NCBI RefSeq assembly: GCF_051105105.1
Contig: NZ_CP185339.1
Strand: one strand, 5' to 3'
DNA from: Nannocystis pusilla
GTDB taxonomy: Bacteria > Myxococcota_A > Polyangia > Nannocystales > Nannocystaceae
Length of the DNA: 64,000 nt
The notes below the pieces were generated by a model. That model had not been told where the DNA came from and did not search any database. It saw nothing but the letters and a program-made list of their open reading frames with translations. Below, one piece after another: positions 4,774-63,538 of this stretch; position 1 is the first letter of the stretch, and each line of letters opens with the position of its first letter. Both the position numbers and the translations under genes were made by a program.

Positions 4774-6028
4774 GTGACGAGCGTCTCGCGGCCGGTGGCG
4801 GCGGCGGCTCCGTGGGCGGAGTCGATGTTCTCGTTCGGGGTCACCGGCACCAACGGCAAGACGTTCGACGACGTGGATGCTGGCGGCGGCGGTGCGGGCG
4901 GCCGGGCTGTCGGTGCTGCGGGTGTCGACGCTCGGGGTCGCGTTCGACGACGAGGCGTGGCCGCGCGGCAAGCGGTTCACCGATTTCGTCGCCACGCTGG
5001 CGCGAGCGCACGAGCGCGGGGCGAGGCACGCGGTGATCGAGACGACCAGCCACGCCTTGGCGCAGGGCTACGCGCGCAGCTGGCGGTTCGACCTGGGGGT
5101 GTTCACCAACCTGTCGGTCGACCACTTCGGCACGCACGGCAGCTGGGAGCACTATCTGGCGGCCAAGGCCCAGCTGTTCATGCACCTGGGGCCCGGGCGC
5201 GCGGCGGTGCTCAACGCGGCCGACAAGCACGCGCTGTTCGTCGACCAGGCGATCCCCGCCGACGTGGAGCGGCGGTGGTTCGCGGCGCCGGGTCGTGGAC
5301 CGCGGCTGCGCGCGGCGGACCTCGAGGCCGAGACGATCGAGGTCGAGGCGACCGGGACGCGCGTGGTGCTGCGCCCGTCGCCGGCCGCGACGGCGCTCGG
5401 CGGGGCGCTCTTTACGAGGATGGTCGGCGAGGTGTTCGCCGAGAACGCGCTGGCGGCCGCGCTCGCGGGGCTCGCGGCCGGGCTGCCCGGCGAGGCGGTG
5501 GCACGCGGGCTCGCCGAGTGCCCGATCGTGCCGGGGCGCTTCGAGGTGCTGGCCCACGCGCCCGGCGGGCCGACGATCGCGGTCGACTACGCGCACTCGC
5601 CCGACGCGCTGACGCACACGTGCGCGACGGCGCGGCGGCTCGCGGGGCCGCAGGGACGGGTGCTCGTGGTGTTCGGCGCCGGCGGCAACTCGACCCCGGA
5701 GAAGCGCGCGCCGATGGGCGCGGCAGTCGGCGCGCTGGCCGACGTGGCGCTGGTGACGAGCGACAACCCGCGCGACGAGGCGCCCGAGGCGATCGCGGCG
5801 GCGGTGGTGGAAGGGCTGCAGGGCGGTCGCGCGGGCTGGTCGATCGTGCTCGACCGCGGGCAGGCGATCGCGGAGGCGGTCGCGGCGGCCGGAGCCGGCG
5901 ACGTGGTGGTGATCGCCGGCAAGGGCCACGAGGAGGGCCAGACGGCGCGCGGGCAGACGCGGCCGTTCTCCGACGTCGCTGAGGTGCGGCGGCTCGTCGG
6001 CGGTTGGGATGTGCCTGTAGGGACATGA
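4774..6028 (+). CDS. Mur ligase family protein (MurE/MurF-like central and C-terminal domains) with an apparent +1 frameshift near 4864; N-terminal domain absent
   Basis: The P-loop GVTGTNGKT (about 4840-4866) is in frame 1. The continuation MLAAAVRAAG..., DYAHSPDAL, VFGAGGNS..KRAPMG, SDNPRDE and AGKGHE are in frame 2 from 4877. Removing one base in acgttcgac restores KTSTTWMLAA. Only about 20 aa precede the P-loop, and the start (GTG 4774 or ATG 4825) is uncertain. Confidence 0.6.
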
Positions 6029-6187
6029 CCGAGAGGTCATGCCGCCGGGGCGGCTCGTGCGCGCAGGTCCTCATGGCCATCCGACCGTGGAGCTCGTCGA
6101 ACGCGGCGCAATTCGAGGGCGCCCGCGCATGTCCCCTGCGGTGGGGCGGCGGCGGTCCTTCCGCTGCAGGCGACCGCGCGCGGCGTG

Positions 6188-6215
6188 GACATGTCCTTTC
6201 GGGCATGTCCATGCG
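6188..6215. repeat. GGACATGTCC repeat pair downstream of the LDLa lipoprotein stop
   Basis: The sequence ggacatgtcctttcgggcatgtcc has two cores 14 bp apart. Confidence 0.7.
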
Positions 6216-6221
6216 GTCATC

Positions 6222-6834
6222 TCAGCAGTCGGCCTCGTCGGAGCCGTCGGGGCAGTCGTCGGCCGTGTCGCACTTCCAGGTCGCCGGGATCTCGGTGCCG
6301 TTGGTGCAGACGAAGGCCTCGAGGCCACAGCCGGTGACCTCGTCGGAGTTGTCGAGGCAGTCGGGGACCTCGTCGCAGGCCCAGGTCGCGGGGATCTCCT
6401 TCTTGTCGGTGCAGGTGAAGGCCTCGAGGCCGCAGCCGCTGACCTCGTCGGAGCCGTCGGGACAGTCCGGGTTCTCGTCGCAGACCCACGCGGGGTTCTT
6501 CGAGCGCGGTGCCGTCGCTGCAGACGAAGCCGTCGCCGGTGGTGTCCGCGGTGGCCTCGGTGGTGCCCGCGGTGGCCTCGGTGGTGCTGGTCGGGGCCTC
6601 GGTGGTCGTCGGCGCGCTGGTGCCGGTGTCGGTCTCGGTGCCGTCGGTCGTCTCGCCCGCCGTGCCGGTGGTGGTCGTGTCGTCCGTGGTGCCGGCGGTG
6701 CTCGTGGTCGTGGTCGAGTCGGGGCCGATGTTGGTATCGGAGAGACCGCCGAGGTTGATCGTGCAGCCGGCTGTGGCCACGCCCTGGCTCATGAGGGCGG
6801 CGACGGACAAAAATTTGGCGAGGTCGATGTTCAT
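6222..6834 (-). CDS. Secreted lipoprotein with a Thr-rich linker and three LDL-receptor class A-like Cys repeats; frame disrupted near 6505
   Basis: Signal/lipobox MNIDLAKFLSVAALMSQGVATAGC, then a TTTTSTAGTT linker. The C-terminus, read in a second minus frame, gives GCGLEAFTCTDKKEIPATWACDEVPDCLDNSDEVTGCGLEAFVCTNGTEIPATWKCDTADDCPDGSDEADC-stop, which matches the LDLa pattern CxxxxFxCxxGxCIxxxWxCDGxxDCxDxSDE. The two parts sit in different frames. Confidence 0.6.
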
Positions 6835-6902
6835 CGTGCCGGCGAATGTGCCACGGGGCAGCGCGCAGGGGCGCGCGCGGCCCATGTCCCGGGGCGCGCG
6901 AT

Positions 6903-7403
6903 TCAGGTCGGTGCGAGGCGGACGGTGACCTCTGCGCTCGGGTCGAACGGCGAGCCCTTGACGTTGGCGATGCATTTGACGACCAGCCGCACCCGCGGAT
7001 CACGCGTGGCGGCGTTCGGATCGGGGAAGCCGTTGCGCGCGAGGATGCCGGCGAGGTCGACCTCGCTCACCATCCACGGCTGGGTGATGACCTGCCCGGG
7101 CTTGAGGTCGCACGGCATCTTGAGGCAGCTGTCCGAATAGCTGACGTTCGGATCGGGATCCTTCTCGGCGCGCGCGAGGTTCGGCGAGTCGATGTCGTCC
7201 TTCTTGATGTACAGCCACACCTCGTACTTGGTCGCCAGCAAGGTGCACTCCTGCTGCGCGGTGATCACCATCGTGCCCTTGAGGACCGAGTCGGTGACCG
7301 GGAAGGTGGCGGTCTCCGCCGGTTGACGCTCGATGACCGTGATGGCGACGCTCGCCATGTTCTTGCCGCCGAGGAACTGCTTGGCCTTGTCGAAGAATCC
7401 CAT
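6903..7403 (-). CDS. Hypothetical protein (166 aa), weakly SpoOM-like
   Basis: Clean ORF MGFFDKAKQFLGG... with lower GC than its neighbours. No confident family assignment. Confidence 0.5.
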   Translation of the reverse strand: MGFFDKAKQFLGGKNMASVAITVIERQPAETATFPVTDSVLKGTMVITAQQECTLLATKYEVWLYIKKDDIDSPNLARAEKDPDPNVSYSDSCLKMPCDLKPGQVITQPWMVSEVDLAGILARNGFPDPNAATRDPRVRLVVKCIANVKGSPFDPSAEVTVRLAPT

Positions 7404-7591
7404 GGCGACGAGAGGTACCACGTCGGTGCAGGGAGCGACGATTCCGCGCAGCGATCGGAGAGGTCTCGGACAGTCGGGATTCGTGTTGGTCGAGGCGGCC
7501 GTGGGCGACTCGCTCGGAGCCTGAGGACGGCCGCTTGTCGCGGTAATCGATGTTCCGCGGCGGCGGCCCACCTCGACCGACACGCATGATT

Positions 7592-8677
7592 TCAGCCGAG
7601 GCTGACGCGGACGGGCGGGGCGAAGGCCGGCGGGCGATCGCTGACTGCGGCGCCGTGCACTGCGGCCTGGTAGCGGTCCCCGAACATCGCGTAAGGGGTG
7701 GTGACGGGCGGCGTACTGGCCTCGTCGAGGCGGCGCAGGAGCTCGGGCGGGATCTGGAGGTCGAGCGCGCCGAGGTTGTCCTCGAGCTGCTCGGGCCGGG
7801 TGGCGCCGAGGATCACGGAGGTGACGCCCGGACGCGTGAGCACCCACTGCAGCGCGACCTGGGCCATGCTGCGCCCGAGCTCGCCGGCGACGGCCTCGAG
7901 CGCGCCGACGATCTGCCAGTTGCGCTCGGTGAAGAGGCTGAGCGACTTGCCCGTGCCAGTGCTGAGCCGGCCGCTGCCGCCGTCGCTGTTCGGGCGGTAC
8001 TTGCCCGACAGGAGGCCGCTGGCGAGCGGGCTCCAGGCGGTGATGCCCATGCCGAGGTTGGTGGCGAGCGAGGTGAACTCGGCCTCGATGCCGCGCTCGA
8101 TCAGGGAGTATTGCAATTGCAGGTTGACGATCGGCGCGAGGGCGTGAGCCTCGGCGTAAGTGTGGGCCCGCGCGGCGTACCAGGCGGGGACGTCGGACAG
8201 GCCGGCGTAGCGGATCTTGCCGGCGCGCACGAGGTCGTCGAAGGCGCGCACGACCTCCTCGGCGGGGGTGATCCGGTCCCAGGTGTGAAGCAGGTAGAGA
8301 TCGAGGTAGTCGGTCCGCAGGCGCTTCAGCGAGGCCTCGAGGGCGCGGATCATGTTCTTGCGGCCGTTGCCGCCGGCGTTGGGGTCGCGCTCGGCGAGGT
8401 TGTAGCTGTACTTGCTGGTGAGCACGAGGCGATCGCGGTTGCCGTCGGCGATGAACTCGCCGAGCAGCGACTCGCTGGTGCCGCGGGTGTACAGATCGGC
8501 GGTGTCGATGAAGTTGCCGCCGGCCGCGACGTAGCGATCGAACACGGCGCGCGCGGCCTGCTTGCTCGAGCCCCAGGCGCCGTACGGGCCGTCGGTGCCG
8601 AAGGTCAAGGTGCCGAGCGCGAACGGGCTGACGCGCAGGCCGGAGCGGCCGAGCAGGTAGTACTGATCGAGAGACAT
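7592..8677 (-). CDS. Aldo/keto reductase family oxidoreductase
   Basis: 361 aa with AKR motifs: FIDTADLY, GLSDVP and IVNLQLQYSLIER-like segments. Confidence 0.85.
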   Translation of the reverse strand: MSLDQYYLLGRSGLRVSPFALGTLTFGTDGPYGAWGSSKQAARAVFDRYVAAGGNFIDTADLYTRGTSESLLGEFIADGNRDRLVLTSKYSYNLAERDPNAGGNGRKNMIRALEASLKRLRTDYLDLYLLHTWDRITPAEEVVRAFDDLVRAGKIRYAGLSDVPAWYAARAHTYAEAHALAPIVNLQLQYSLIERGIEAEFTSLATNLGMGITAWSPLASGLLSGKYRPNSDGGSGRLSTGTGKSLSLFTERNWQIVGALEAVAGELGRSMAQVALQWVLTRPGVTSVILGATRPEQLEDNLGALDLQIPPELLRRLDEASTPPVTTPYAMFGDRYQAAVHGAAVSDRPPAFAPPVRVSLG

Positions 8678-8692
8678 GACGAATCACTCCTG

Positions 8693-8951
8693 TCGACGAC
8701 GGCCGCCCGAAGCGGTGCGTCGCGGACTGTCACGATGGGTTGTGGACGAAGCAGTCGTCGACGGCCGCCACATGCGGTGCGTCGCCAACTATCACGAACG
8801 AAGGGTCGGGTACGATGAAGTCGACGACGGCCGCTCATGCGGTCCGCCGCGGGCTGCCATGAGCGGTGAGTCGTGAACGGTGCAGTCGACGACGGCCCGC
8901 TCATGCGATGAGTCGCAGGCTGCGTCGAGCGATATGTTGTGGACTATGCAG
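8693..8951. repeat. Four imperfect tandem copies of a 62-66 bp unit, each beginning GTCGACGACGGCCGC
   Basis: Units at 8693, 8755, 8821 and 8886 fill the whole space between the TetR stop and the AKR start. Confidence 0.75.
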
Positions 8952-9554
8952 TCAAGAACTCGCGGCGAGCGGCGGGCCCCGGAGGGCGGCGATGGCGAAG
9001 CCGGCGACGGCCCGCAGGGCCTCGGGCGTGGCGCCCGTGCGGGCGCTGACCCGCAGGCCCTGCAGGGTGGAGAGCAGGAAGCGGCCGGCGCTGCGCTCGT
9101 CGACGTGCGCGCCGACCTCGCCGCGGTGCTTGGCCTCGGCGACCATGCGCTCGAAGGCGGCCTCGCACAGGGCGGTGGCGCTGCGGGCCAGGGTCACGAC
9201 CTCGGGGTCGCGCCCGGCCATCTCGATGATCGACTGGATGCCGAAGCAGCCGCGCGAGCGCCCCTCGGCGGTGTCTCCGGCCACGCCGAGCAGGATGTCC
9301 TCGATCGCGCCCAGCGGCGAGGCGACCGCCCGCAGCCGCTCCAGCAGGTCGGCGCCCTGACGCGCCTGGTAGCGCTCCAGCGCCGCGAGGTAGAGGCCGT
9401 GCTTGTCGCCGAAAGCGGCGTACATGCTCTGGCGCCCGATCCCCATGGCCTGGAGGAGCTGCTCGGTCGAGGTGCCGTCGTAGCCGTGCTCCCAGAACAC
9501 GGCCATGGCCCGCTCGATGGCCTCGTCTCGGTCGAACTCGCGTGGCCGGGGCAT
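8952..9554 (-). CDS. TetR/AcrR family transcriptional regulator
   Basis: The N-terminal HTH segment TSTEQLLQAMGIGRQSMYAAFGDKHGLY is typical of TetR_N. 200 aa. Confidence 0.85.
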   Translation of the reverse strand: MPRPREFDRDEAIERAMAVFWEHGYDGTSTEQLLQAMGIGRQSMYAAFGDKHGLYLAALERYQARQGADLLERLRAVASPLGAIEDILLGVAGDTAEGRSRGCFGIQSIIEMAGRDPEVVTLARSATALCEAAFERMVAEAKHRGEVGAHVDERSAGRFLLSTLQGLRVSARTGATPEALRAVAGFAIAALRGPPLAASS

Positions 9555-9573
9555 GGAGGAAGGCTAAGCGTTC

Positions 9574-9851: not shown

Positions 9852-10202
9852 TCAACGGCCGGCGGCGGAGCCCGGGCGGAACGAGTCGACGAAGCGGCGC
9901 AGCTCGTCGGCGCGCTCGCGGGCCTGCGCTCGCGGGACCTCGCCGACGATCACGCAGGTGGCGTCGGCGACGGTGACGAGGCGGACGAGGCCGTGGGCGT
10001 CGTCGGTGGTGAGCGCGCCTTCGAGGCCGGCGGTGCCCTCGACGTCGATCGCACGCACGCCCTGGAGGCGCATGGTGTCGGCGATGCTACGCAGCTCGTC
10101 GGCGGGCGTGCGGCCGGCGATCGGCTGGGCGCGGGCGCTGCAGGTGACGAGGCGCGAGACGTCGCCGGGCTGCTTGAGCGCGAGCATGCGGGTGGTCATG
10201 GC
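9852..10202 (-). CDS. Hypothetical protein (about 117 aa), or the C-terminal part of the upstream lipoprotein if a frameshift is present
   Basis: ORF MTTRMLALKQPGDVSRLVTCSAR...FVDSFRPGSAAGR. It overlaps the tail of the 10087-11220 ORF in another frame. Confidence 0.4.
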   Translation of the reverse strand, partial: AMTTRMLALKQPGDVSRLVTCSARAQPIAGRTPADELRSIADTMRLQGVRAIDVEGTAGLEGALTTDDAHGLVRLVTVADATCVIVGEVPRAQARERADELRRFVDSFRPGSAAGR

Positions 10203-11220
10203 CACGCCGTCGGCGGCGGTGAAGCTTCTGGCGCTGCGCGTTGGGCCGCCGCGGGAAGACTGCAGAGAAGCCGACGTCGGGGAAGGCCCAGCGGACCTGC
10301 GAGCCCTCGCGCCCGACCTCGACCGGCTGGAGCGCCCCGGCCGCGACCGCGGCGAGCACGGCCTCCTGCTGATCGAGGTGCTCGCGGAGCTCCTCGGCGA
10401 GCGCGTCGACGCGCGGGTGCGGCTCGCGATCGGGGGCGAAGGCGGTGCGCAGCGCGGCGAGCCCGGCGGGGGGGACGGCGACGGCGGCGAGGCGATCGGC
10501 GAGGTCGAGGATCCGGTCGCGCTCCTCGGGGAGGAACCACGGAGCGACGAGGTCGCCCAGCGGACCGAAGGTGGCGACTGCGACGGCGGGATCGATGGTG
10601 TCCGGGAGAGCGAGGGCGCTGGCGAGGACGTCGTGGACGCCGCGCGCGAGGTGAAAGCGGGCCTCGACGAAGGTGCGGCGCGCGGGGTCGTCGCCGGCGA
10701 GCCGCTCGACGCGAAGGGCGGACTCTTTGAAAAAAGCCGCGGCCACGGCGAGGTACTCGTGTCCGTATTCGCCGCGCGTGAGGGCCCGCGCGGCGTAGAG
10801 CTGCAGGATGTCGGCGAGGGCCAGGTGCAGCGCGGCGAGCTCGTCGGGGCCGGCCGTGCTCCGGGCGGCCGCCTCGATGCCGTCGAGGGCGACGAGCCGC
10901 CGGAGCCATTCGCCGTCAGGTCCGTCGAGCCGCGGCAACAGCTCGGGACGCTCGCGCTCGAGGCGGACGAAGGCGTCGCGGACTCTTTGGTAATCCCGGG
11001 GGGTCCAGGAGGCGTCGGCGGCCGGGAGGTCGTAACTCCGCCGGAGCTCGCTGGTCGGCTCGCTTCGGGGCGCGTCGATGCTGGCAGGAGCCGCGGTCTC
11101 GGCGCTGCGGCGGCAAGCCGCGAGCAAGACGAGGAGGAGCACCAGGCTTCGACCCGCGCCCCGAGAGCGACGGCGCGGCGCGACCGGGTTCGAAGCGAAC
11201 ATCTGCGATGGACGATACAA
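10087..11220 (-). CDS. Hypothetical lipoprotein
   Basis: Signal/lipobox RSLVLLLVLLAAC. The translation is plausible up to about WAFPDVGFS (near 10240), then becomes Arg-rich and likely out of frame. Confidence 0.5.
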   Translation of the reverse strand: MYRPSQMFASNPVAPRRRSRGAGRSLVLLLVLLAACRRSAETAAPASIDAPRSEPTSELRRSYDLPAADASWTPRDYQRVRDAFVRLERERPELLPRLDGPDGEWLRRLVALDGIEAAARSTAGPDELAALHLALADILQLYAARALTRGEYGHEYLAVAAAFFKESALRVERLAGDDPARRTFVEARFHLARGVHDVLASALALPDTIDPAVAVATFGPLGDLVAPWFLPEERDRILDLADRLAAVAVPPAGLAALRTAFAPDREPHPRVDALAEELREHLDQQEAVLAAVAAGALQPVEVGREGSQVRWAFPDVGFSAVFPRRPNAQRQKLHRRRRRGHDHPHARAQAARRRLAPRHLQRPRPADRRPHARRRAA

Positions 11221-11481: not shown

Positions 11482-13348
<1,867 letters not shown>

Positions 13349-14105
13349 AGACGCCGTTTTGGGCGGCGGCGGGAAGTAAACCCGGCGGCGCTGCGCTGGC
13401 AAGTCGCGCCGATGTGAGCGGCGCGGGCTTATTTTCGGGCGACAGGCCGGTCACAGGAGTGAATCGGGGGCGAACAGGGGTCGGCTCGGTCGCCGCGCAG
13501 CCGCGAAAGCGGCGGTCCTCCGGCGATCGGCGTCGATCTGCGCCCGCATGACGGCCCATAGGTGCGGCTCGGCCAGGGTCGCACCGAGGCAATCGCGGGG
13601 ATCGCGCGGCGGCACCGGGGCGGGCAGATCCGGCCCGCTCGGCTCGGGCGGCGCGCGCTCCGGCTCCGGCTCGGGCCGCGGCGCGACGTTCCGGCAGACC
13701 TGGGTCGTCCGGAGACGGTAATTCACGGACCGGTGTGGGGGTGATCCGCAGTCGGCGACGGCGTTGCATGGATCGGATCTGTACTGAACACCCAATCAGT
13801 GTCCAGCGATCACCGAGGCTGCCCTGAACTCTTGATCAGAGGCAGACAAACTAAATCGCGCGGCGCAAAACTGCGCCGACGAGCAGATAGGCCCCTGTAG
13901 CGGCCCGCGGGCCGTTTCGGGGGCGGGGCGGAGACGCGCGTGGAACGGCGCGAAGGGCGGGGAGCGGCAGCGCGCGTGGCTGGTCTTCGGGACAGGGAGA
14001 TCGCTTCGCAGGGCGTCGCCGACGCCGGGCCAGCGGCTCGCCGGGCGCGACCGTATCGAGCCGGCGCAAGCGAGGGTCGCCGCGCGCGCTGGGCCCGGTC
14101 GCGGG

Positions 14106-14703
14106 ATGAGGGTGAACAACCGGGTGCTGTACGTCGGCGACGGCGACGACAGCAGCGCCGGCCTCGCGGCCGGGACGGTTGACTCGCTCTACACCTTCGA
14201 CGCCCGGGTCAGCGCGAGCGCGCCGGTCAGCCCGGTGCACGACCTCGTGGCGCTGCTCGGGGGCGAGCTGCACCGCTTCAACGTTGTCACGCACGAGGCC
14301 GAGTGGGTGGTCGACTGGAAGGCCAACGTCCCGGGCCTCGGCCACGAGCTGCACCGCTTCAGCGTCGTCACGCACGGGTGGTCGACTGGAAGGCCGCCGT
14401 CACGGGCCTCGGCCACGAGCTGCACCGCTTCAACGTCGTCACGCCCGAGGCCGAGTGGGTGGTCGACTGGAAGGCCGAGGTCACGGGCCTCGGCCACGAC
14501 GCGTTCGACGGCACGTATACGCCAGCCTGTCGACGCTCGAGGTGGGGCGGGTCCATCCGCTCACCGGGGCGGTCGAGGCGACCGCGACCGTGCCGGGGAA
14601 GGGTCGCGTGGCGGTCAGCCCGAGCGCGGCGCTGTGGTTCACGCCGGCGAAGTTCCTGAACGCCGGGGCGCTGCAGTCGTGGCCGCTGCCGACCGGGCTG
14701 TGA
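14106..14703 (+). CDS. Hypothetical protein containing three 81-bp (27 aa) tandem repeats; frame broken inside the middle repeat
   Basis: Starts MRVNNRVLYVGDGDD, then ELHRFNVVTHEAEWVVDWKANVPGLGH repeated three times. The middle copy lacks about 10 nt. The C-terminus LSTLEVGRVHPLTGAVEATATVPGKGRVAVSPSAALWFTPAKFLNAGALQSWPLPTGL reads in another frame. Confidence 0.4.
14263..14500 (+). repeat. Three tandem copies of an 81-bp unit (the middle copy is about 71 bp)
   Basis: The unit gagctgcaccgcttcaacgt(c/t)gtcacgc..gaggccgagtgggtggtcgactggaaggcc..gtc.cgggcctcggccac is repeated. Confidence 0.7.
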
Positions 14704-18885: not shown

Positions 18886-19588
18886 TCAGCCGGCCTTGGG
18901 CGGCTCGGCGGCGTCGGCGGGGACGCCGAGGACCTCCTGGATGGCGGTGTTGAGGCCGGAGAGGTCGGCCGGGGCGACGCCGGAGTACTTCACGGCGTTG
19001 CGGCCGTCGGCGAACATGACGGTGCGGCTCTTGGTGATGTTGTACCAGCCGTCGAAGGCGTCGTTCTTGCCGCCCTCGTCGGCCGGGACGACCAGCGGGA
19101 TGTTGACGCCGAGGCTCGGCGCGCAGGGCCTTGACCTTGGCCTCGAGCGCGGCGCGGTCACCGGTCGGGGTGGTGGCCTTGCCGTCCTTGATGTCGGTGA
19201 TGACCGCGAAGGCCTTGACCTTGTCCTCGCCGTACTTCTGGACCAGGGCGTCGAGGTTCTTGATGTCGTTGCGGAAGGCCTCGTCGTCGATGGTGCCGAC
19301 GGCCATGATCTTCGGGCTGCCGCCGAACTTGCAGACCTGGCAGTACTTCTCGCCGCTGTCGCAGTTGACGATCTCGAACGGCTTGAACTTGCCGCCGACG
19401 CCGAGGCCGCTGTCGGCGAGGACGGGCTGCTCGGCGGGCTTGGCCGGGGCGGCCTCGACGGGCTTGTCGGCGGGCGCGGGCGCGGCCGGCTTGGCGGCCT
19501 CGACGGGGGCAGGCTTGGTGGCCGCCTCGCCGCCGCAAGCAGCAGCGAGGATCACGGCGAGGGCGAGGCTCGAACGGGTGGTGAGCAT
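18886..19588 (-). CDS. Thioredoxin-fold lipoprotein with a frameshift near 19130
   Basis: GGAGG RBS and ATG, then MLTTRSSLALAVILAAACGG...CDSGEKYCQVC. The C-terminal thioredoxin-like part (PSLGVNIPLVVPADEGGKNDAFDGWYNITKSRTVMFADGRNAVKYSG) is in the adjacent frame. Confidence 0.55.
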
Positions 19589-19807: not shown

Positions 19808-20906
19808 TCACGGGCACAGCGGGCTCGACGGTTCGAGGCAGGCGAGGCCGGCGACGATCTCGACGCGATGGTTGACGCGCCGGCCCTCCTCGCTGTCGTT
19901 GCCTGCGATCGGCTGGTCGGCGCCGCGGCTGCGCACCTCGAGCGTGTGGTGGATAAAGCCGCGATCGATCAGGACGGCGCGGGCCTTGTCGGCCATGTCG
20001 AGGCCGAGCTGGCGCGCCTCGGCAGGCGGCAGGCCGGCGGCGGTGTGGCCCTCGAGCACGAACACGCCGCGGGTGGAGAGGCGCTCGCCGAGCTGCTTGC
20101 GCCGCGCGTCGAGGTCGAGGAAGCCCTCGGGGTCGAGCTCGCGGGTGACCGGGTCGTAGGCGAGGCGGACGACGAAGCGCCCGCAGTCGGCGACGAAGGC
20201 CTCGGGGCAGCCGTCGGCGTCCTGCTCGCCGTTGATGGTCTTCGGGCTGGTCGCGGCAGTCGCGGCGGTGGATGCCGCGCTCTACCTTGCCGTCGCAGTT
20301 GATCCACTCGCTGCCGGTCCAGCGCGCGGCGTCGAGGACTCCGTCGCCGTCGTTGTCGCGATCGGGACAACCGTCGTCGTCGGCGAAGCGGTCGTGATCC
20401 TCGGGATCGTCGCGGCAGCGATCGACGGCGTCGGCGAGGCCGTCGGCGTCGCGATCGGGGGCGAAGGGCGGACAGACGCGCCGCAGCTGGACCCAGCTGC
20501 CGGCCCACAGATCGTCGGCGGGACCGCCCGGGACGCCGTGGACGACCAGGCCGACGCGCGCGGCGGGCCGGATCTCGGCGCGCACGCGCGCGAGCAGGTC
20601 GGCGCCGAGGGCCCGCATCTGCGCGGAGACCTGCGCCGGATCGGCGCCGGCGCGCGCGGCCGCGGCCATGTGGACGCCGAGCTCGACGCGCACCTGCGGA
20701 TCGGCGCGCAGGCGGGCGATCCACTCGTCGAGCTCGGCGGCGCCGTCGCGGTCGAGCTGCAGGGGCATCGCGGTGGCGGCGTAGGGGATGGTGGCCAGGA
20801 TCGCGGCGCACTCCGAGATCGGGGGCGGCTGCGGCCGCTCGGGCACTTGCGGGCCGCTGCAGGCGAGGAGCGCGGCCAGCGTGGCGGTGGCGGAGGAGCG
20901 TCGCAC
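19808..20906 (-). CDS. OmpA-family lipoprotein with thrombospondin type-3-like Asp-rich repeats; frameshift near 20250
   Basis: Lipobox LLACSGP. Repeats DRDADGLADAVDRCRDDPEDHD...DDGCPDRDNDGDGVLD. The OmpA C-terminal domain (FVLEGHTAAG...RRVEIV) sits in another frame. Deleting one base at gaagaccatc gives QPEDINGEQDADGCPE. Confidence 0.65.
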
Positions 20907-35813: not shown

Positions 35814-37212
35814 TCAGCGCGGCTCGTCGTCGGGGCAGACGAAGCGCTCGAAGCGGCGGGCGAGCACCGAGTCGGGCAGGCGCGCGGCCAGGCGCTGGGC
35901 GGCGGTCGCGGCGTCGGCGGGGCGGCCTTGCAGGCACAGGAGCTCGACCGCGGCGGCCTCGCGGGCGTCGACGAGGGCGCCGCGCGGGAACTGGCGCGCG
36001 TGGGCGTCGAGGAGCTGGGCGGCGCCTGCGGGGTCGCGGGCATCGAGGCGGGCGCGGGCGCGGTCGAGGAGGCCGACCTCGAGGGCGAGGTCGTCGCGGG
36101 CGGGCAGGCGCGTGGATGTCTCTCGGGACAGCAGCTGATCGTAGGCCGGGCGCGTGACCCGGCCGGCGGGCGCGGGTGCGGCTGTCCTCGGGGACAGGCC
36201 GGCCGCCGGGCCCGGCGACAGGGGGGCCGTCGCGCGGGTCCACACGCCGGCGACCTGCGCGCGGAGGTGGGCGAACGAGACCGGGGAGACGGGGGACCGC
36301 AGCGCAGTGGCGGGCGCTTCGGTGGGCGAGATCGAAGCTGTCTCTCGGGACATGTCGTCGGACGAAGGCGTGGCTGTCTCTCGGGACATGTCGTCGGGCG
36401 AAGGCTTGGCTGTCTCTCGGGACATGTCCCCGCTGGAACGAGAGCCAGCTGTCTTTGCGGACAGGTCCTCGATCTGCGCGGCGGCGGCCCGGCCCGGGGC
36501 CTGGCGGGGGGCGACCGCGACGACGGCGGTGGCGCCGGCGACGACGAGGGTGGTCATGACGCCGGCGCGCGCGGTGGTCCAGGCGGCGGCGACGGTGGCG
36601 AGCTTGCCGTGGCCGAAGAGCGGGACCATCACGGCCCAGGTGCGCGAGGCGGCGCCTTCCGGGGGCTCGTCGCGGCGGCGGCTCTCGGCGACCTCGACGG
36701 CCAGCAGCTCGGGGCTGGCGGCCAGCTCGAGCAGGCGGGCGCGCGCGAGGCGGAGCCGCGAGTAGACGGTGTTGAGCGGCAGCTCGAGCTCGGCGGCGAT
36801 CTCGGGGCCGCTCATCCCGAGCAGCTCGGTCAGCTCCCACACCTCGCGGGTGCCGCGAGGCAGGCCGGCGAGCAGGCGCTCGAGCAGGCGGGCAGCGTCG
36901 TGGCGCTCCTGCGGGGCCTCGCCGACGTGGCCGGTGAGGTCGCCGAGGGCGGCGATCCGGCGGGTCCGGCGGGCGACGCCGCGGTGCCAGTGGGAGGCGA
37001 CGCGGCGGGTGACGCCGTACAGCCAGGCGCGCGCCGAGACCTGGTAGTGGACCTGGTCGAAGCGGCGGTAGGCGGTGAGGAAGACGTCCTGGACCACGTC
37101 GTCGCGGGCGGCCGCGGGGACGCCGAAGTACTTCGCGGCCGACCACACGAATTGGAACTTCTCGGTCGTAGATGGCGCGAAAGCGCGCTTCTCGGTCGGT
37201 GGCGAGCAGCAT
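35814..37212 (-). CDS. ECF sigma factor continuing in-frame into an anti-sigma (single-TM) domain; frameshift near 37155
   Basis: Sigma region 2 (DVVQDVFLTAYRRFDQ) and region 4 (VWELTELLGMSGPEIAAELELPLNTVYSRLRLAR) are followed by TM LATVAAAWTTARAGVMTTLVVAGATAVVAVA and an anti-sigma-like C-terminal domain. The N-terminus MLLATDREARFRAIYDREVP is in the adjacent frame. An extra base in the ccaattcg homopolymer explains the shift. Confidence 0.65.
36330..36470. repeat. GGACATGTC-family repeat array with 36-bp period, in-frame within the anti-sigma periplasmic linker
   Basis: Cores at 36351, 36387, 36423 and 36459. It translates as DMSRETAKPSPD / DMSRETATPSSD / DMSRETASISPT. Degenerate copies lie at 36100-36180. 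Confidence 0.75.
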
Positions 37213-44151: not shown

Positions 44152-44542
44152 CTAGTCCTCCTTGAGGAAAGCCTCGTACTGCTCGGCGGTGAGCAGCCCA
44201 TCGAGCGCGGAGCGGTCGGTCGGGCGGATCCGGACCATCCAGCCGTCGCCGTAGCAGTCGGTGTTGACGTTCCTCGGGCGAGGCGTCGAGCTCGCCGTTG
44301 ACCTCGATCACTTCGCCGTCGATCGGGGCGTACAGCTCGCTCACGGCCTTGACCGAGTCGACCGTACCGAACTCCTGTTCGGCGGTCAGCCGGGTGCCGA
44401 CGGTCGGCAGGGTGACGAGGGTGATGTCGCCGAGGGTGTTGACGGCGTGGTCGGTGATGCCGACGACGACGGTGCCGTCGCTCTCGAGGCGGGCCCACTC
44501 GTGCTCTTTGGTGTAGCGGAGGTTGCTCGGGATCTTGGACAT
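44152..44542 (-). CDS. gcvH: Glycine cleavage system H protein with a 1-bp frameshift near 44273
   Basis: Lipoyl-lysine region GTVDSVKAVSELYAPIDGEVIEVN. The C-terminus NVNTDCYGDGWMVRIRPTD...AEQYEAFLKED is in the adjacent frame. An extra g in the ttcctcggg run explains the shift. Confidence 0.8.
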
Positions 44543-44552: not shown

Positions 44553-44608
44553 CGGGGCAGGTTGTCGGGGACAGGTACGCGGGGACAGGTACGCGGGGAC
44601 AGGTACGA
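44553..44608. repeat. Four tandem 14-bp units GGGGACAGGTACGC (a variant of the family)
   Basis: The sequence ggggcaggttgtc|ggggacaggtacgc|ggggacaggtacgc|ggggacaggtacga lies between gcvT and gcvH. Confidence 0.8.
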
Positions 44609-52967: not shown

Positions 52968-52971
<4 letters not shown>

Positions 52972-54921
52972 GCGGCGGGGGAAGAGTACCCCTCGGCGAG
53001 CGCGTTGGCGACCTCGGTATAGGCGTAATCGCTGACGCGTTCGTCGATGCGCATGCGCAGCAGCGCCTTGCTGCGGCAGGTGGCCGCGAAGAAGAACGCG
53101 CGATCGTCGGCGCACGCGCGCGCGAGCGCCGGATCGGCGGTCCAGCGGTCCCACTCGCGCTGGCAGATCCGCCGCACCGCGGGCCACAGGACGTTCGGGC
53201 CGGGGCCGCCGGCGTCGTCGACCCAACCGATCACGGCCGCGAGGTGGGCGTGCACGAGGGTGTGCAGCAGCTTGCCCTGGGCCTCGGCGAGGTCGGAGGT
53301 CAAGGTGAAGGAGTCGGGCGCGAGCGCGGGGGCGTGGCCGGCCGCGGCCAGCCGCCCGCGGTGGAGCCGCACGCCGCCGAGGTCGCGGACGACGAAGCCG
53401 CAGGGGCGCCCGGCGTGGACGAGGAGGGTGTTTTGCAGGTGCGCCTCGAGGGCGACGCCGTGGGCGGTGAGCAGGCGCAGGGCCGCGGGGACCAGGAGGT
53501 CGAGGTAATCGTGGAAGAAGGCCGCGAGGCGCGCGCGCGGATCGCCGGGGTAGTCGGCGGCGAGCTCGCGCAGCAAGAGGTCGCCGCCGGGCCGGCGCTC
53601 GCCGAGGGCGGCGCAGACGACGAGCTGCGGGGTGCGCGATGGGACATGTTCGATAGGGAATGTCGCGCGGGACAGGTCCCCGGGGGCATGTTGCAAGGGG
53701 AATGTCTCGGAGGACAGGTCGGAGACGCGGGCGGAGGGGCGCGAGGGCGGCGAGGCGGTCGGACCGGTGAGCGGGCCGGCGAGCGAATTCGGGGCGGTCC
53801 GCGCGGCGCGGGACGGGTCCCCCGGGGCAGGTGCGGCGAGGGTGGCGAAGAGGTCCGCGTGGAGGTCGCGGGCGAGGGCGGCGGGGTCGGGGCGGAGGAC
53901 GACGCCGAGCTGGCCGGCGCTGGGGCCGTGGCGGGGGTGCAGGCCGGCGGCGGCGAGGTCGGGCTGGACCTGCAGGCCGCGGCGGGTGAGCGGATCGGCG
54001 GCCTGGATCGCGGCCAGGAGGGCGGCGATCGGCGGGCCGTTGTGCACCGAGGCGGGCGAGACCTGGCGCCGCGCGCTGGTGGTGTGGATGTCGACGGCCA
54101 GCTTGAGGTGCAGCGCGGGGGCGACGAGGGCGACGGTGCGCAGGCTGAGCAGGGCGCGCGCGTGCAGCGGGGGCAGGCCGGCCGGGCGGACCTCGCGGCC
54201 CCACAGCGGGCCGAGCAGGCGCGGGAGGCGGCGCAGCTGCAGGGCGTGGACGGGCAGGCGGACGAGGCCCGGCGGCGGGGCCGGGAACAGGGCGCGCGCG
54301 AGCTCGGCGTAGACGGTCGGCTCGGCCAGCTGGGCGTGTTCGGCGGCGACGTTCGACGGCGTGGACGGCCGCCTGGGCCAGCAGGTCGGGGCCATGGCGC
54401 AGGTTCTCCCAGGCGCGCAGGCCGAGCCGGGTCTTGCTCATCGGGTGCCACGGGTGGCCGTCGACGACCAGGTTCTCGGGGTCGAGCGGGGCGGGCCACG
54501 GCTGGCCTTTAGAGCATGTCCGATGGCGCAGGTCGGCGGCGACGCGGGCGAGGGCGAGGTTCCAGCGGCTGTCGGCGAGCTCGCCTGCGATCCGGGCGCG
54601 GATGGCGGGGGCGAGCGCGGGCAAGAGGCGCGGGAGGAGGCCGGGGAGGTCGGGGAGGTCGGCGCCGTCGAGGTCGGCGGCGTGCAGCTCGAAGGCCCGG
54701 CGCCGGCGCAGCGGGAGGCTCAAGGAACATGTGCGAAGGGACATGTCCTGGAGGTCGAATTCGACCAGCCGCTCGCGCGCGCAGGCGAGGACGAGGCGGG
54801 CGCCGATCGCCTGGGTCGCGGCCCGCCAGTGGGCGGCGAGCTCGGCGGGCGCCGGCCGGGCGCCGAACGCGACAGGCACGGCCCGGGCGGCGAAGGCGAG
54901 GAAGCGGTCGCGCTCGGACAC
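52968..54921 (-). CDS. IucA/IucC family (NRPS-independent siderophore synthetase-like) protein with a frameshift near 54330 and in-frame palindromic-repeat insertions
   Basis: N-terminal block [17 protein letters not shown] is in one frame. The mid-domain [24 protein letters not shown], the catalytic region [19 protein letters not shown] and the FhuF-like C-terminus are in the adjacent frame. The segment between the SLRT-like and H-Q-N blocks is roughly 75 aa longer than in characterised members, and it contains the 84-bp repeat array. The start is uncertain (GTG about 54921). Confidence 0.6.
53645..53728. repeat. Six 14-bp-phased repeat units (84 bp = 28 codons), in-frame inside the IucA/IucC ORF
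   Basis: Cores at 53645, 53659, 53673, 53687, 53701 and 53715. It translates to [28 protein letters not shown]. Further copies inside the same ORF lie at 54510-54535 and 54720-54750. Confidence 0.8.
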
Positions 54922-54934
54922 GGGCGAAAGGTAG

Positions 54935-55187
54935 CGCGCGGGGCCGGACGACGAAAGCGGCCGGTCCAGCCGGGAGTGGAGCTCGCGCCCGAGTCGTCGC
55001 GCGGGGCCGGACGACGAAAGCGGCCGGTCCAGCCGGGAGTGGAGCTCGCGCCCGAGTCGTCGCGCGGGGCCGGATGACGAAAGCGGCCGGTCCAGCCGGG
55101 AGTGGAGCTCGCGCCCGAGTCGTCGCGCGGGGCCAGGCGCTGCGAGCGGCAGGTCGGGTGAGCCGGTGGAGCTCGTGGCCGAGTGGT
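54935..55187. repeat. Three near-perfect and one degenerate tandem copies of a 63-bp unit
   Basis: The unit gcgcggggccggacgacgaaagcggccggtccagccgggagtggagctcgcgcccgagtcgtc repeats at 54935, 54998 and 55061. A degenerate fourth copy lies at 55124-55187. Confidence 0.8.
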
Positions 55188-55217
55188 CGGGCGCGGCGGG
55201 GCGACGAGCGCCGCCGG

Positions 55218-55990
55218 TCAGGCCGCGCGGCGGAGCTCGAGGCCGAGTTCGCCGAGCATGAGGGCGGCGGACAGGAGCAAGATCCAGGCGATCCAGCGGC
55301 GCAGGCTGTCGGGGTCGAGGTCGCCGGTGCGGCGGGCGCCGAGGTTGGCGCCGAGCAGGGTGAGCGGGGTGACGACGGCGAAGGCGGTGAGGTCGACCTG
55401 TCCTTGGAGGAAGGTGGCGACGCCGGCCGACAGCCCGGTGACGGCGCCGATCGCCATGTTGGTGCCGACGGCCACGGGCGGGGGGACGCGGGCGTAGCGG
55501 ATCATGGCCGGCAGGCGCAGGCTGCCGAGGAGGAGGCCGACGAGGCCCGAGATCGCGCCGAGGACGGCGCCGACGACGACCTCGGCGAGGACGGCGAAGG
55601 TGCGCGAAGGGACATGTTCGGAAGGACCGGCGGGCTCGGGCCGGGGCCGCAGCATGGCGGCGCCGGTGAGCAGGAGGACGCCGGCGATGGCGGCCTTGAG
55701 GAGGCGGGCGTCGACGCTGCCGGCCCAGCGCGCGGTGGCGAAGGCGGCGACGGCCGAGGGCGCGCCGACGGTGGCCAGCAGCCACAGGCTGACGCGGCCG
55801 TCGCGGGCGTGACGCCAGGTGCCGGTGAGGGTGCCGGCGGTGGAGATGGCGAGGCTGGTGGCGGCCCCGACGACGGGGCTGCCGAGGACGTAGACGAGGA
55901 GGGCCACCCGCAGCTGACCGAGCACGAGCCCGACCGTGGCGCCGATGTAGCTGAGGCCGAAGGAGACCAGCGCGATGAGCGCCAGCGCGA
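55218..55990 (-). CDS. TauE/SafE (DUF81) family anion exporter; no canonical start codon
   Basis: Two TauE half-repeats of TM helices with GxxxG-rich segments. The N-terminal helix [22 protein letters not shown] lies upstream of the GTG given in the ORF track, and no ATG/GTG/TTG was found there. A GGACATGTTC repeat unit (55600-55625) lies in-frame in the central loop ([11 protein letters not shown]). Confidence 0.65.
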
Positions 55991-56148
55991 GGATCTCGGT
56001 GGAGCGCAGGCGCCGACGCTATCACGCGCGCGGCGAGTCCGGGGCAGCCGCGCCGACGCGAGCGCCGACATGAGGTGGCGTTCATGATCGCAGCGTTCAC
56101 GCCTCGCGCGATGCGAGGCCGCGTGCATCGGCGTCGGCGCGAGCGATC

Positions 56149-59408: not shown

Positions 59409-59669
59409 CGGCGCGGCGCGCGACGCGGGCAGGCGCGCATGGGCGCCGGAGCGCGCTGCCGGTCCACGCCTCGCGCTCGGAGTCGGAGGGTCTGCAGGCT
59501 GCGGCCGCAGCGGCGAGGTGAACGAGCTGCAGGTCGCGACAGCGGTCGATCGCAGCGAGGATGCGGTAGCGAGGTCGCGACGCGGGCCGTCGACCCCACG
59601 CGCGGGCGCGAGTCGCCTGCCGCGCGCCGGTTGACTGCGGCGGCGGTCAGGTCGTATGCGAAAGATGAG

Positions 59670-60869
59670 ATGCTGCCCTCTCGCGTCGTCCTCGCGTGGT
59701 CTTCCGTGCTCGTCGTCGGCTGCTATTCGGGCGTCGCGGAGGTGACCGAGAGCATCGGCGCGCCGGAGACCGCGAGTGAGGCGACGAGCACCGGCGCGGG
59801 CGCGGCGAGCAGCGAACCGGAGACGAGCGATGCGAGCGCGCCGGGCACCGGCGAGGCGTCGACTTCGGGACCGCCGACGAGCACGAGCGGCGCCGGGACG
59901 ACGACCACGGGGCCGGACGAGGTGTCCTCGGGGCCAGGTCCGACCGGCGACGGGACCTCCGGCGCGGCTTCGGCGACCACCGGCGAGCTCACCACCGGCG
60001 AGCTCACCACCGGCGAGCTCACCACCGGCGACATCACCACCACCGGCGAGCCGATCGATCCGGCGGCGGAGGTGTGCGCGCGCTGGACGGCGGACCGTAC
60101 GGACATGTCTGAAGGGACATGGAGCGGGGCGGTCGCCGGCTGTCAGGCGGGGGACACGGGCGCGCCGGGCCGCGACAACGCGCTCAGGCTGATCAACTTG
60201 TACCGCTGGCTGGCCGGGCTGCCGGCGGTCGGGCACGACCCCGGGCTCGGCGCCAAGGCGCAGCAGTGCGCGCTGATGATGCACGCCAACGGGCAGCTGT
60301 CGCACGACCCGCCGATGCAGTGGGACTGTTACACCGCCGACGGGGCGCAGGCGGCGAAGAACAGCAACATCTCGTCGACGCCGGGCGTGGTAGCGGTCGA
60401 CCTCTACATGGTCGACCCCGGCAACGCGACGACCTTCGGCCACCGGCGGTGGATCCTCTCGAACAAGCTCGGGCCGGTCGGGCTCGGGTCGACGGCCGTC
60501 AACTCGTGCATGTGGGTGATCGGCGGGCAGGGCGGCGGCGACGCGGCGTGGACGGCCTGGCCGCCGCCCGGGGTGGTGCCGATCGCCGCGATCCACGTGC
60601 CCGAGGTGCCGTGGTCCGACGTCGACGAGACGGGCTGGACGATCCAGAGCGACGCGATCGACCTCGGCGCGGCGCAGGTCAAGATCAGCGAGGGCGGGGT
60701 CGACCGGCCGGTGAAGACGACGGCGCTCATGGGCGGGTTCGGCTCGGCCAGCGCGATCGCCATGACGCCGCAGGGCTGGACCTCGGAGGCCGGCAAGACC
60801 TACACGGTGGCGGTCAGCGGGGTGCCGCAGCCGTTCAGCTACGACGTGCAGGTGGTCGCCTGCCCATGA
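59670..60869 (+). CDS. CAP (CRISP/Ag5/PR-1, SCP) domain lipoprotein with a Ser/Thr/Gly-rich linker
   Basis: Lipobox LVVGCYSG. (GELTT)x3 tandem peptide repeat. The CAP core LINLYRWLAGLPAV...AQQCALMMHANGQLSHDPP..WDCYT..GAQAAKNSNI..HRRWIL. A GGACATGTCTGAAGGGACATGG repeat pair at 60100-60125 is in-frame (TDMSEGTWS), and the stop codon lies inside the next repeat array. Confidence 0.75.
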   Translation: MLPSRVVLAWSSVLVVGCYSGVAEVTESIGAPETASEATSTGAGAASSEPETSDASAPGTGEASTSGPPTSTSGAGTTTTGPDEVSSGPGPTGDGTSGAASATTGELTTGELTTGELTTGDITTTGEPIDPAAEVCARWTADRTDMSEGTWSGAVAGCQAGDTGAPGRDNALRLINLYRWLAGLPAVGHDPGLGAKAQQCALMMHANGQLSHDPPMQWDCYTADGAQAAKNSNISSTPGVVAVDLYMVDPGNATTFGHRRWILSNKLGPVGLGSTAVNSCMWVIGGQGGGDAAWTAWPPPGVVPIAAIHVPEVPWSDVDETGWTIQSDAIDLGAAQVKISEGGVDRPVKTTALMGGFGSASAIAMTPQGWTSEAGKTYTVAVSGVPQPFSYDVQVVACP

Positions 60870-60873
60870 GGGA

Positions 60874-60920
60874 CATGTCCGTACGGGCATGGCCGAGCGG
60901 GCATGTCCCGACGGGCATGG
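60874..60920. repeat. 14-bp-phased GGACATGTCC / GGGCATGG array (4 units)
   Basis: Cores at 60874, 60888, 60902 and 60916, starting inside the CAP gene stop codon (cccaTGAgggacatgtcc). Confidence 0.85.
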
Positions 60921-60924
60921 CCGA

Positions 60925-61383
60925 TCAGACAGCCGCGACGCAGACCAGGCGGACCTCGATGGCGCGCGTCTCCTCGCCGCTCGGCTCGATGTTGGTGGCC
61001 TCGATCACGAGCTCGTCGCCGTCGCGGCGGAAGGCGGTGCGCCAGCCCCAGCGCTGATCGCCGGCGCGGTAGCTGCCGAGGACCGAGACGGCGGGGCCCG
61101 CGGGCCCGGTCGACCACAGGGGGGAGGCGCCGGTGTGGAAGGTGTCGATCCAGTACAGGGTGTGCTCGTGGTCGTCGACGCCGAGGGTCATCTCGCCGTG
61201 GTGCAGCTTGCCGGTGCACACGCCGTCGTAGCGGAGGCGCGCGTAGCGGCCGTCGAGCAGCGACTCGATCTGGACGCGCCAGTCGCCGACGTTCGGCTCG
61301 CCCGTCGGGTCGAGCCAGGTGCGCGCGGGGCCGGTCCATGAGCCTGTGAGTTCGGTGAGGGGGTGGGCCATGACGCCGGTCAT
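60925..61383 (-). CDS. Hypothetical small protein (DUF1579-like)
   Basis: 152 aa ORF MTGVMAHPLTELTGSWTGPARTWLDP...IEVRLVCVAAV of balanced composition. Confidence 0.5.
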   Translation of the reverse strand: MTGVMAHPLTELTGSWTGPARTWLDPTGEPNVGDWRVQIESLLDGRYARLRYDGVCTGKLHHGEMTLGVDDHEHTLYWIDTFHTGASPLWSTGPAGPAVSVLGSYRAGDQRWGWRTAFRRDGDELVIEATNIEPSGEETRAIEVRLVCVAAV

Positions 61384-61443
61384 AAGCGATCGCCGGCGGG
61401 CGATCCACCGGCGTGGGGTCGGGCCAGTGCTATAGTGACGGCG

Positions 61444-62562
61444 ATGCGAGCGGTCCGCGGTGCGGTCGGGGTGTTGTGGCTCGGGCTCGGTGCGTGCCCG
61501 TCGCCGGCCACGCGCGGCGAGAGCGACGCGGGGACGACGAGTGGTTCGGCGGAGGCGGGCGCGCCCGCCGAGACGAGCAGCTCGAGCAGCTCGAGCGAAA
61601 CGACGGCGGCGCCGACGACCACGGGGCCGGGGCCCGACGTCGGGATCGCGTCGCGCTGCGGTCACGACAGCCCGGAGGCGCTGATGGACTGCGTCGACCC
61701 GGCTCGCTGGGCCGAGGACGTCGCGTTCATGGCCCAGTCGCGGCCGCCGGGATCGATCCACTGGCAGAAGGTGCAGGATCGCTGCGCGGCGGCGCTCGAG
61801 CAGGCGGGCTTCGTGGTGCAGCGCCAGGACTACGGCACGGGGATCAACGTGATCGGGACGCGCGAGGGCACCGCGGCGGCGTCCGAGGTGGTGCTGCTGA
61901 CGGCCCACTACGATCACGTCAGCGGCTGCCCCGGCGCCGACGACAACGCGAGCGGGGTGGCCGGGGCGCTCGAGGTGGCGCGCGTGCTCGGGCAGGCGAC
62001 GCTGCCGCGCACGCTGATGGTGGCCTGCTGGGACGAGGAGGAGCTGGGGCTGCGCGGCTCGCGGGCGTTCGCGCAGACGTTCACGGGCGCGAAGCTGGCG
62101 GTGGCGTTCAACTTCGACATGATCGGCTACGCGAGCGCGGCGGAGCACTCGCAGATCTTCCCGGGGCCGCTGGCGGAGCGGTTCCCCGGGCTGGCCGACG
62201 AGCTGACCGCCAACAAGGGGCGCGCCGACTTCATCGCCGTGGTCGCCGACGCGTCGGCCGAGGCGTTCGCGCGCGAGCTGGAGGCGCAGGCGGAGGGCCT
62301 CGGCCGGCTGACGGGGGTGATGACGCTGACGGACGCGGAGAAGCTCGACGACGACGCGTTCGGGGTGCTGAGCACGTCGGACCACCGCAGCTTCTGGGAG
62401 CGCGGGCTGCCGGCGCTGCACGTGTTCGACACCGGGGTGTTCCGCAACCCGGCGTATCACTGCGCGGTCGGGCTCGACACCCCGGACAAGCTCGATCACG
62501 CGTTCGCTACCGACGTGCTCAAGGCGACGACGGCGGCGGTCGCGGCGGCGGCCGGGCTGTAG
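61444..62562 (+). CDS. M28 family Zn aminopeptidase lipoprotein
   Basis: Lipobox LGLGAC and a Ser-rich linker. M28 motifs LLTAHYDHV, DDNASGVAGALEVAR, CWDEEELGLRGS and FNFDMIG. Confidence 0.8.
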   Translation: MRAVRGAVGVLWLGLGACPSPATRGESDAGTTSGSAEAGAPAETSSSSSSSETTAAPTTTGPGPDVGIASRCGHDSPEALMDCVDPARWAEDVAFMAQSRPPGSIHWQKVQDRCAAALEQAGFVVQRQDYGTGINVIGTREGTAAASEVVLLTAHYDHVSGCPGADDNASGVAGALEVARVLGQATLPRTLMVACWDEEELGLRGSRAFAQTFTGAKLAVAFNFDMIGYASAAEHSQIFPGPLAERFPGLADELTANKGRADFIAVVADASAEAFARELEAQAEGLGRLTGVMTLTDAEKLDDDAFGVLSTSDHRSFWERGLPALHVFDTGVFRNPAYHCAVGLDTPDKLDHAFATDVLKATTAAVAAAAGL

Positions 62563-62571
62563 CCGCGCGGC

Positions 62572-63538
62572 TCAGCTCCACTGCAGGTCGAGGACGAAGC
62601 GCCGCCACTCGCGCTCGAAGCGGGGCATGTCGCGGTGGCCGACGAGCTTCTGCAGGGTGCCGTAGCCGCCGGGATCGAGGACGGCGCCGGCGACGAAGGC
62701 GTGATAGTAGTCGCGCAGGCGACCCTGCTCCTGTAAATAATAGCAGAGGTAGCGGGCCTGGGCGTAATTGAGGCCGGAGCGCGCGCCGTAGAATTTCGTC
62801 GGAGTCGGTGGCGCACAGCTCGGCGAACGAGCGCAGGCGCCGGGCCCGGATGGCGGCCTGCAGCTGCGGCAGGCGCCAGTTGGGGTAGCCGACGATCCGG
62901 CCGCCGTGCTCGCCGCACTGCTCGTAGAGCGAGGCGAGGCCCTCGTTGAACCAGGCGGGGCAGGCGGGGAAGTTGGCGGCCATGAACGGATGGACGATCT
63001 CGTGGACGAGGGTGCCGCCGCCGGTGCCGATGTTCATGATCAGGGCGGCGTGCCGCGGCGAGTAATAGCCATAGGGGGTGTCGGGCTCCTCGCCGAACAA
63101 CTCGCGGGTGTTGCGGCCGTAGCTGGCACGGTCGGCGAACAAATACACGTCGATGATGCGCGCCGGGTCGCGGGCGAAGTAGTCCTGCTTGAGCCGCAGC
63201 ACCGACCAGTGGATCGTGCGATCGGCCCGCCGCTGGACGTCGGCGGGCGGTTCGTCGCCGATGACCACGAAGGGCGGCTCGACGAGGACGGTGAAGCCGC
63301 GGCCGACGTGGCGCTCGCGCAATGCGTCGGCGCGGGCGTCGAGGGCGGCGCGAGTGACGAGGGGCGGGCCGAGGGCCGAATTCGCGACCGGAGGCGGCGG
63401 CGGACCCGGCGAGGGGAGCTCGGGCTCGGGCTCGGGCGCGAGCGCGCGGCGGGGAGGGGGCGGCGCGGAGGTCGGGCGATCGCCGCAAGCCCAGGTGCCG
63501 GCGGCGACGAGCCCGAGGGCGAAATCTCGGCGGTGCAT
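62572..63538 (-). CDS. DUF1570-like (peptidase MA superfamily, HExxH) secreted lipoprotein with a frameshift near 62800
   Basis: Lipobox GTWACGD. HEIVHPFM...FNEGLASLYE zincin-like motif. The C-terminus FYGARSGLNYAQARYLCYYLQEQGRLRDYYHAF...FVLDLQWS is in the adjacent frame. An extra base in the gaatttc run explains the shift. Confidence 0.6.

Follow-up and report, generated by a model that had tools for sequence, protein, structure and literature searches.

Why would a single stretch of the Nannocystis pusilla chromosome carry ten conserved genes that are each broken into two halves in adjacent reading frames? The stretch in question is a 64-kb segment of contig NZ_CP185339.1 (assembly GCF_051105105.1), called here the window, which holds roughly 55 genes. 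The original prediction held that at least ten conserved genes of the window are interrupted by single-base frameshifts, and that these are likely indel errors rather than pseudogenes. Segmentation, translation and alignment confirm ten such genes, each split by one private insertion of a single nucleotide (nt) that is absent from every aligned relative. Comparison with other Nannocystis assemblies indicates that the splits are very probably errors in the deposited assembly and not biology; in the living organism all ten genes are most likely unbroken.

Private insertions in ten genes

The window contains 72% G+C, rising to about 97% at third codon positions (GC3), and its reading frames can therefore be read directly from composition. 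Frames were called by segmentation of codon usage and GC3 in all six frames, by three-frame translations and by Pfam searches of the joined halves, while indels were placed on base-level multiple alignments. Syntenic DNA was compared from the Nannocystis assemblies ILAH1/RBIL2, JBMPIV, JAPNKE and JBMEQO and from two Logan read-based assemblies; these up to six relatives share 92–97% DNA identity with the window, and three to six of them cover each locus. The close relatives were reached through protein clusters and exact-protein look-ups; a contig scan with the TypA N-terminus gave, among the matches listed, distant relatives only (best identity 66%).

At each listed site the coding signal changes frame on the same strand, and three-frame translation shows one protein divided into halves that occupy neighbouring frames. 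The alignments assign the change to an extra T on the + strand within coding sequence at 4864, 6500, 10227, 12402, 20242, 37159, 44270, 54352 and 62794, and to an extra G on the same strand at 19114. Their distance from the coordinates first proposed ranges from 0 to about 140 nt and for most is no more than 10 nt; it is about 20 nt for 19114 and for 54352, and 140 nt for 10227 when measured from the open reading frame (ORF) coordinate 10087. Five further private insertions fall outside genes (T at 4761 and 13690, C at 8898 and 19613, G at 56041), so that non-coding DNA is reached as well and the total comes to 15 in 64 kb.

The original prediction called for a comparison with a close relative. 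Each of the ten genes is a single intact ORF in all relatives covering its locus (ILAH1/RBIL2, JBMPIV, JAPNKE and the two Logan assemblies). For two genes the inserted base had been predicted before close comparators were at hand and was then confirmed by them: the T in AAC-TCTCGG of the ECF sigma gene, and GACGTC as the true sequence in gcvH. Single-base private indels in conserved context were also counted over the same 22 kb in every assembly. The window has 10 (7 insertions, 3 deletions), far above chance when set against 0 in ILAH1/RBIL2, 2 deletions in JBMPIV and 4 deletions in JAPNKE. The private deletions of JAPNKE split its CCP, TldD and TRAP genes. JBMEQO (GCA_049060185.1, JBMEQO010000002.1; an N. 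pusilla contig of 12.69 Mb) has split genes and no typA call; its 11 private indels in about 20–22 kb are without exception deletions, roughly half falling in C runs, and this assembly itself appears error-prone, with a profile unlike that of the window.

The repaired frames contain no stop codons, and every gene carries one lesion, with no nonsense mutations, deletions or larger damage. One stop was counted for gcvH in the alignment run, most likely because the sequence was misaligned to a divergent allele; repaired by hand, the gcvH protein is full length. Private codon changes, defined as window-only changes at codons where all relatives agree, amount to 52 synonymous and 44 non-synonymous in the 1,447 codons upstream of the shifts, and to 41 synonymous and 39 non-synonymous in the 1,351 codons downstream. 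The pairwise ratio of non-synonymous to synonymous differences (pN/pS) is 0.26 upstream and 0.29 downstream. Constraint is thus equal on either side of the shifts, and the out-of-frame parts are not yet decaying. A high non-synonymous count in gcvH was considered as a sign of decay and rejected, as it reflects a mosaic allele common to another strain. None of the ten genes displays relaxed selection, additional lesions or a lesion common to relatives, as a pseudogene would; what they display is the pattern of an artefact, namely private lesions opposite intact relatives, single-base indels only, and an excess of private indels. The original reading of the frameshifts as indel errors is thereby strongly supported.

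The first affected gene (4774..6028, + strand; insertion at 4864) encodes a Mur ligase of the MurE subfamily without an N-terminal domain, 417 amino acids (aa) long in all relatives. The extra T lies directly after the codons of the GKT P-loop, and a further private T (4761) precedes the gene start by about 13 nt. Joining the halves restores one Mur_ligase_M match across the junction (profile positions 1–199 of 200). The protein scores above the NCBIfam cut-off for the MurE subfamily, yet it lacks the first 90–110 or so positions of the MurE profile, and the gene adjoins trp genes; it is probably a MurE paralogue with another role.

The second gene (6222..6834, − strand; 6500) encodes an LDLa lipoprotein of 201–202 aa in relatives, and the joined protein contains three LDL-receptor class A repeats (Pfam Ldl_recept_a). 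The third (9852..11202, − strand) encodes a hypothetical secreted protein of 448–449 aa in relatives, for which searches of Pfam and NCBIfam gave no match. Its frameshift had been listed as only probable, from the ORF pair 10087/9852, and the extra T at 10227 now establishes it.

The gene typA/bipA (11482..13348, − strand; 12402) encodes a translational GTPase of 621 aa in relatives. Its GTP_EFTU domain and domain 2 lie before the junction, while EFG_III, EFG_C and BipA_C follow it. The repaired protein is 99% identical to a 621-aa Nannocystis TypA found by cluster search and, read by eye, apparently identical to N. pusilla MFZ6177451.1 (P0129) except at the junction codon.

A lipoprotein gene (18886..19588, − strand; 233 aa in relatives) carries the extra G at 19114, and a private C (19613) lies just upstream of its start. 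Its product had been described as thioredoxin-like, and our family search gave no match for it. The adjacent OmpA-family gene (19808..20906, − strand; 365 aa in relatives; 20242) encodes a protein with Asp-rich repeats that look thrombospondin-type-3-like by eye.

The ECF sigma factor gene (35814..37212, − strand; 37159) encodes a protein with a long C-terminal extension, 404–541 aa in relatives, and after joining the Sigma70_r2 match spans the junction. The extension is naturally fused and variable in length; a 36-nt repeat in 2.6 copies (36337–36428) encodes units of the DMSRETA type. The possibility that another frameshift joins the sigma factor to an anti-sigma protein was rejected, since relatives hold the same long single ORF. 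The surrounding segment 35576–38429 varies between strains: the sigma factor gene and the neighbouring gene for a 365-aa protein are absent from Logan SRR26602171 and present in JAPNKE, JBMPIV and SRR28678144.

In gcvH (44152..44542, − strand; 44270), encoding the glycine-cleavage H protein of 130–131 aa in relatives, the joined halves give one GCV_H match (1–121 of 122). The middle part of this allele resembles that of the SRR26602171 strain, while three closer strains have a different version, which suggests recombination. The spacer between gcvT and gcvH holds a perfect tandem repeat of 14 nt in three copies (44566–44607; CGGGGACAGGTACG).

An IucA/IucC-family siderophore synthetase with an FhuF-like C-terminal domain (52968..54930, − strand; 54352) measures 628–635 aa in relatives, and its IucA_IucC match (6–237 of 239) is continuous across the junction. 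The spacer between this gene and that of a TauE/SafE-family permease contains a near-perfect tandem repeat (54935–55134; 63 nt in 3.2 copies, 99% identity), the copy number of which seems, as BLAST matches suggest, to differ in ILAH1/RBIL2. The last gene (62572..63538, − strand; 62794) encodes a DUF1570-like protein of 320–321 aa in relatives; here too the family match spans the junction, albeit weakly (E = 0.004).

Strand and sequence context of the insertions

The original prediction attributed the frameshifts to systematic homopolymer indel error and placed several of them in short same-base runs. This part of it does not stand. Only one of about 236 runs of at least 4 nt with conserved flanks differs in length between the window and its relatives, and the sites were no homopolymers beforehand: the new base doubles a single base in 11 private insertions out of 15, all coding ones among them.

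The insertions follow another rule. All 11 insertions of A or T, nine coding and two outside genes, add a T to the + strand and never an A (two-sided p ~0.001), irrespective of gene strand, as the Mur ligase gene is encoded on the + strand and the other genes on the − strand. The inserted T precedes C in 10 of the 11 (p = 0.004). Five of the 11 convert GACGTC to GACGTTC (p = 8e-9, against a background in which the motif occurs 48 times among 6,834 single T's): those in the Mur ligase gene, typA, gcvH and the siderophore synthetase gene, and the one at 13690, upstream of typA and outside any confident gene. CTCGAG becomes CTTCGAG in the LDLa lipoprotein gene, CTCGGG becomes CTTCGGG in the OmpA-family gene, and AACTCTCGG becomes AACTTCTCGG in the ECF sigma gene; relatives have GAACTCG in the DUF1570-like gene where the window has GAATTTCG. 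We also considered a conversion of all GACGTC sites and rejected it, since 43 copies stay intact; natural GACGTTC sites exist as well.

The insertions obey the strand and the DNA motif, not the reading frame. This rule points to base-calling or consensus software, possibly with DNA modification helping.

The window as a whole has a strong strand asymmetry of its own. GC skew is positive in all of its 2-kb bins (0.06–0.22), and on the + strand runs of at least 4 nt number 496 for G and 86 for C.

Assembly error, mutation or recoding

We propose that the deposited N. pusilla assembly carries residual consensus errors, probably from inadequately polished long reads. These would be single-base insertions, mostly an extra T before TC on the given strand, and would have arisen in base-calling or in consensus building; modification of the DNA at or near the insertion motifs may have contributed. 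An insertion falling inside a gene would shift the frame, and the gene would then appear as two ORFs in adjacent frames. About 10 of the roughly 55 genes of the window are struck, typA and gcvH among them. Natural gene loss is an unlikely account of ten +1 insertions that include these two genes and that neither nonsense mutations nor larger lesions accompany.

Long-read assemblies are known to suffer from frameshifts caused by small indels, for which the usual remedy is polishing with short reads or frameshift-aware correction (PMC9262707; proovframe preprint). The window resembles residual Nanopore or PacBio indel errors in that its lesions are private to one assembly, its adjacent-frame ORF splits are dense and the relatives are intact. 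It differs from the usual form in that the events are insertions, lie outside pre-existing homopolymers, and keep to one strand and to the T-before-C and GACGTC contexts. Strand-specific nanopore errors linked to bacterial DNA modification have also been reported (PMC11610603, PMC11610573), and the recurrence of the window errors on one strand at a short, partly palindromic motif (GACGTC) recalls them. The titles and abstracts of these two reports, however, speak of mismatches in one title and of errors or base errors in the abstracts, whereas the window has insertions, at 5 of 48 GACGTC sites.

Several points weigh against assembly error as the explanation. The errors are deduced from comparison and not seen directly in reads. 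The profile is not that of classic long-read error, as runs of at least 4 nt are essentially untouched (1 of about 236), and the events are insertions as opposed to the deletions of other error-prone assemblies. No established technical effect accounts for a strand bias this complete (11 T, 0 A), and only 5 of the 48 GACGTC sites are affected. Literature searches returned no paper on this genome, its sequencing platform or its polishing. A Logan read-based contig of the same strain was likewise not found, the window proteins that we looked up being listed from NCBI and UniRef only.

The explanation that survives best after assembly error, although we consider it improbable, is that the insertions are real and very recent mutations of a mutator or of a long-cultured laboratory lineage, and that the ten genes are true young pseudogenes. 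The frameshifts do sit in the deposited record. Eight intact window proteins match exactly N. pusilla proteins in the range XWX14836–XWX14855, all on one contig of 12,213,092 bp; the protein cluster of TypA has entries from nine other Nannocystis assemblies and none with an XWX accession, and no free accession for gcvH exists between its neighbours XWX14844 and XWX14846, which together indicate that the frameshifts are present in the public record. Gene decay also occurs within the window, as the locus at 14118–14703 is truly decayed, and equal constraint upstream and downstream is compatible with events younger than the divergence of the strains. However, such mutations would require ten independent hits in about 55 genes, including typA and gcvH, all of them +1 insertions and none a nonsense mutation, a deletion or another lesion. 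Real indels would as a rule be expected mostly in homopolymer runs, and here the runs of at least 4 nt are unaffected. A one-strand rule of T before C, with five GACGTC sites, matches no known spontaneous mutation spectrum. Across these 22 kb the relatives have 0–4 private indels, and ILAH1/RBIL2 and JBMPIV keep the listed genes of this stretch intact. Pseudogenes of reductive evolution do share with the window the frameshifted ORFs of conserved genes, and the remnant at 14118–14703 is a true example of them; the ten genes differ in having one lesion each, of one type, with constraint kept and nothing common to relatives.

Recoding, by programmed ribosomal frameshifting or transcriptional slippage, would leave the genes functional as written. 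Such recoding exists in bacteria, with prfB and dnaX as examples, and it would agree with the constraint on the downstream parts. Nevertheless, the orthologues are single-frame in all relatives; the junctions have no common slippery motif in the coding sense (T in the + strand Mur ligase gene, A in the − strand genes) and lack the long stretches of A or T on which slippage could occur; and insertions of this kind are also seen in non-coding DNA (4761, 13690). Programmed frameshifting is ruled out by a rule that depends on strand and motif and is blind to the reading frame, and we give recoding as a whole practically no credence.

Equally negligible is the converse, in which the window is correct and each relative lost a base or was frame-corrected at every site: JBMEQO and JAPNKE do have private indels of their own, but at each site three to six independent assemblies agree, among them Logan assemblies of short contigs that come from separate sequencing runs, and the conserved proteins are intact in the relatives and split in the window alone.

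Within the preferred explanation of assembly error, we speculate that the insertions reflect the chemistry of N. pusilla DNA itself, with a modification at AatII-like GACGTC and CTC-containing sites as the candidate; we hold this idea tentatively and think it rather doubtful. If true, the modification would have derailed long-read base-calling or consensus building, and the error pattern could be mined genome-wide for the modification motif of the strain.

Loci of another nature and the deposited record

Two loci that had been listed among the indel errors belong elsewhere. The first, a repeat protein gene at 14106, has real frame changes, which come from a tandem duplication of 71/81 nt and a 1-nt deletion in a 5′-truncated remnant. 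The remnant (14118..14703, + strand) begins at about codon 352 and matches only residues 353–500 of a protein of 500 aa, of which JAPNKE alone has an intact copy; the 5′ two-thirds of the gene are missing. Its tandem repeat (period 71–81 nt) is longer by about 152 nt, and the 1-nt deletion lies near 14511. Only short ORFs are present at this locus in ILAH1/RBIL2, and none is called in JBMPIV. The locus is a real, decayed 3′ remnant of a gene, degraded in relatives too, and not a product of insertion error.

The second is the gene of the TauE/SafE-family permease (55218..56012, − strand), which is not frameshifted, as its coding region aligns without gaps. The absence of ATG, GTG or TTG at its annotated start, which had been taken as a sign of error, is common to the window and its relatives, and so are the in-frame upstream stops (55980–56020). 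The start is either CTG or a codon further downstream. The private G (56041) falls outside the gene, on its upstream side.

Other candidates were rejected. Translations around 1860, 6915, 43184 and 52986 suggest that these are not frameshifts but regular gene borders, marked by stop and start codons. In the NAD synthase gene, a 2-nt deletion paired with an insertion (51075/51096) corresponds to a diverged patch of 8–10 residues of equal length. Between the genes of a TetR-family protein and an aldo-keto reductase, tandem repeats of 65–66 nt (8746–8953; about 2.4 copies, 77% identity) include the private C insertion at 8898.

For users of this genome, about one gene in five in the window is annotated wrongly, or discarded as a pseudogene, in a genome made public as "complete", and if the rest of the 12.2-Mb chromosome behaves alike, a few thousand genes would be affected. 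Gene calls, pseudogene counts, and pan-genome and biosynthetic-cluster analyses drawn from this record need frameshift correction first. The signature itself (insertions, one strand, GACGTC) is also useful for tuning polishing tools on very GC-rich genomes. For the biology of N. pusilla the gene splits carry little weight, not being a real biological feature.

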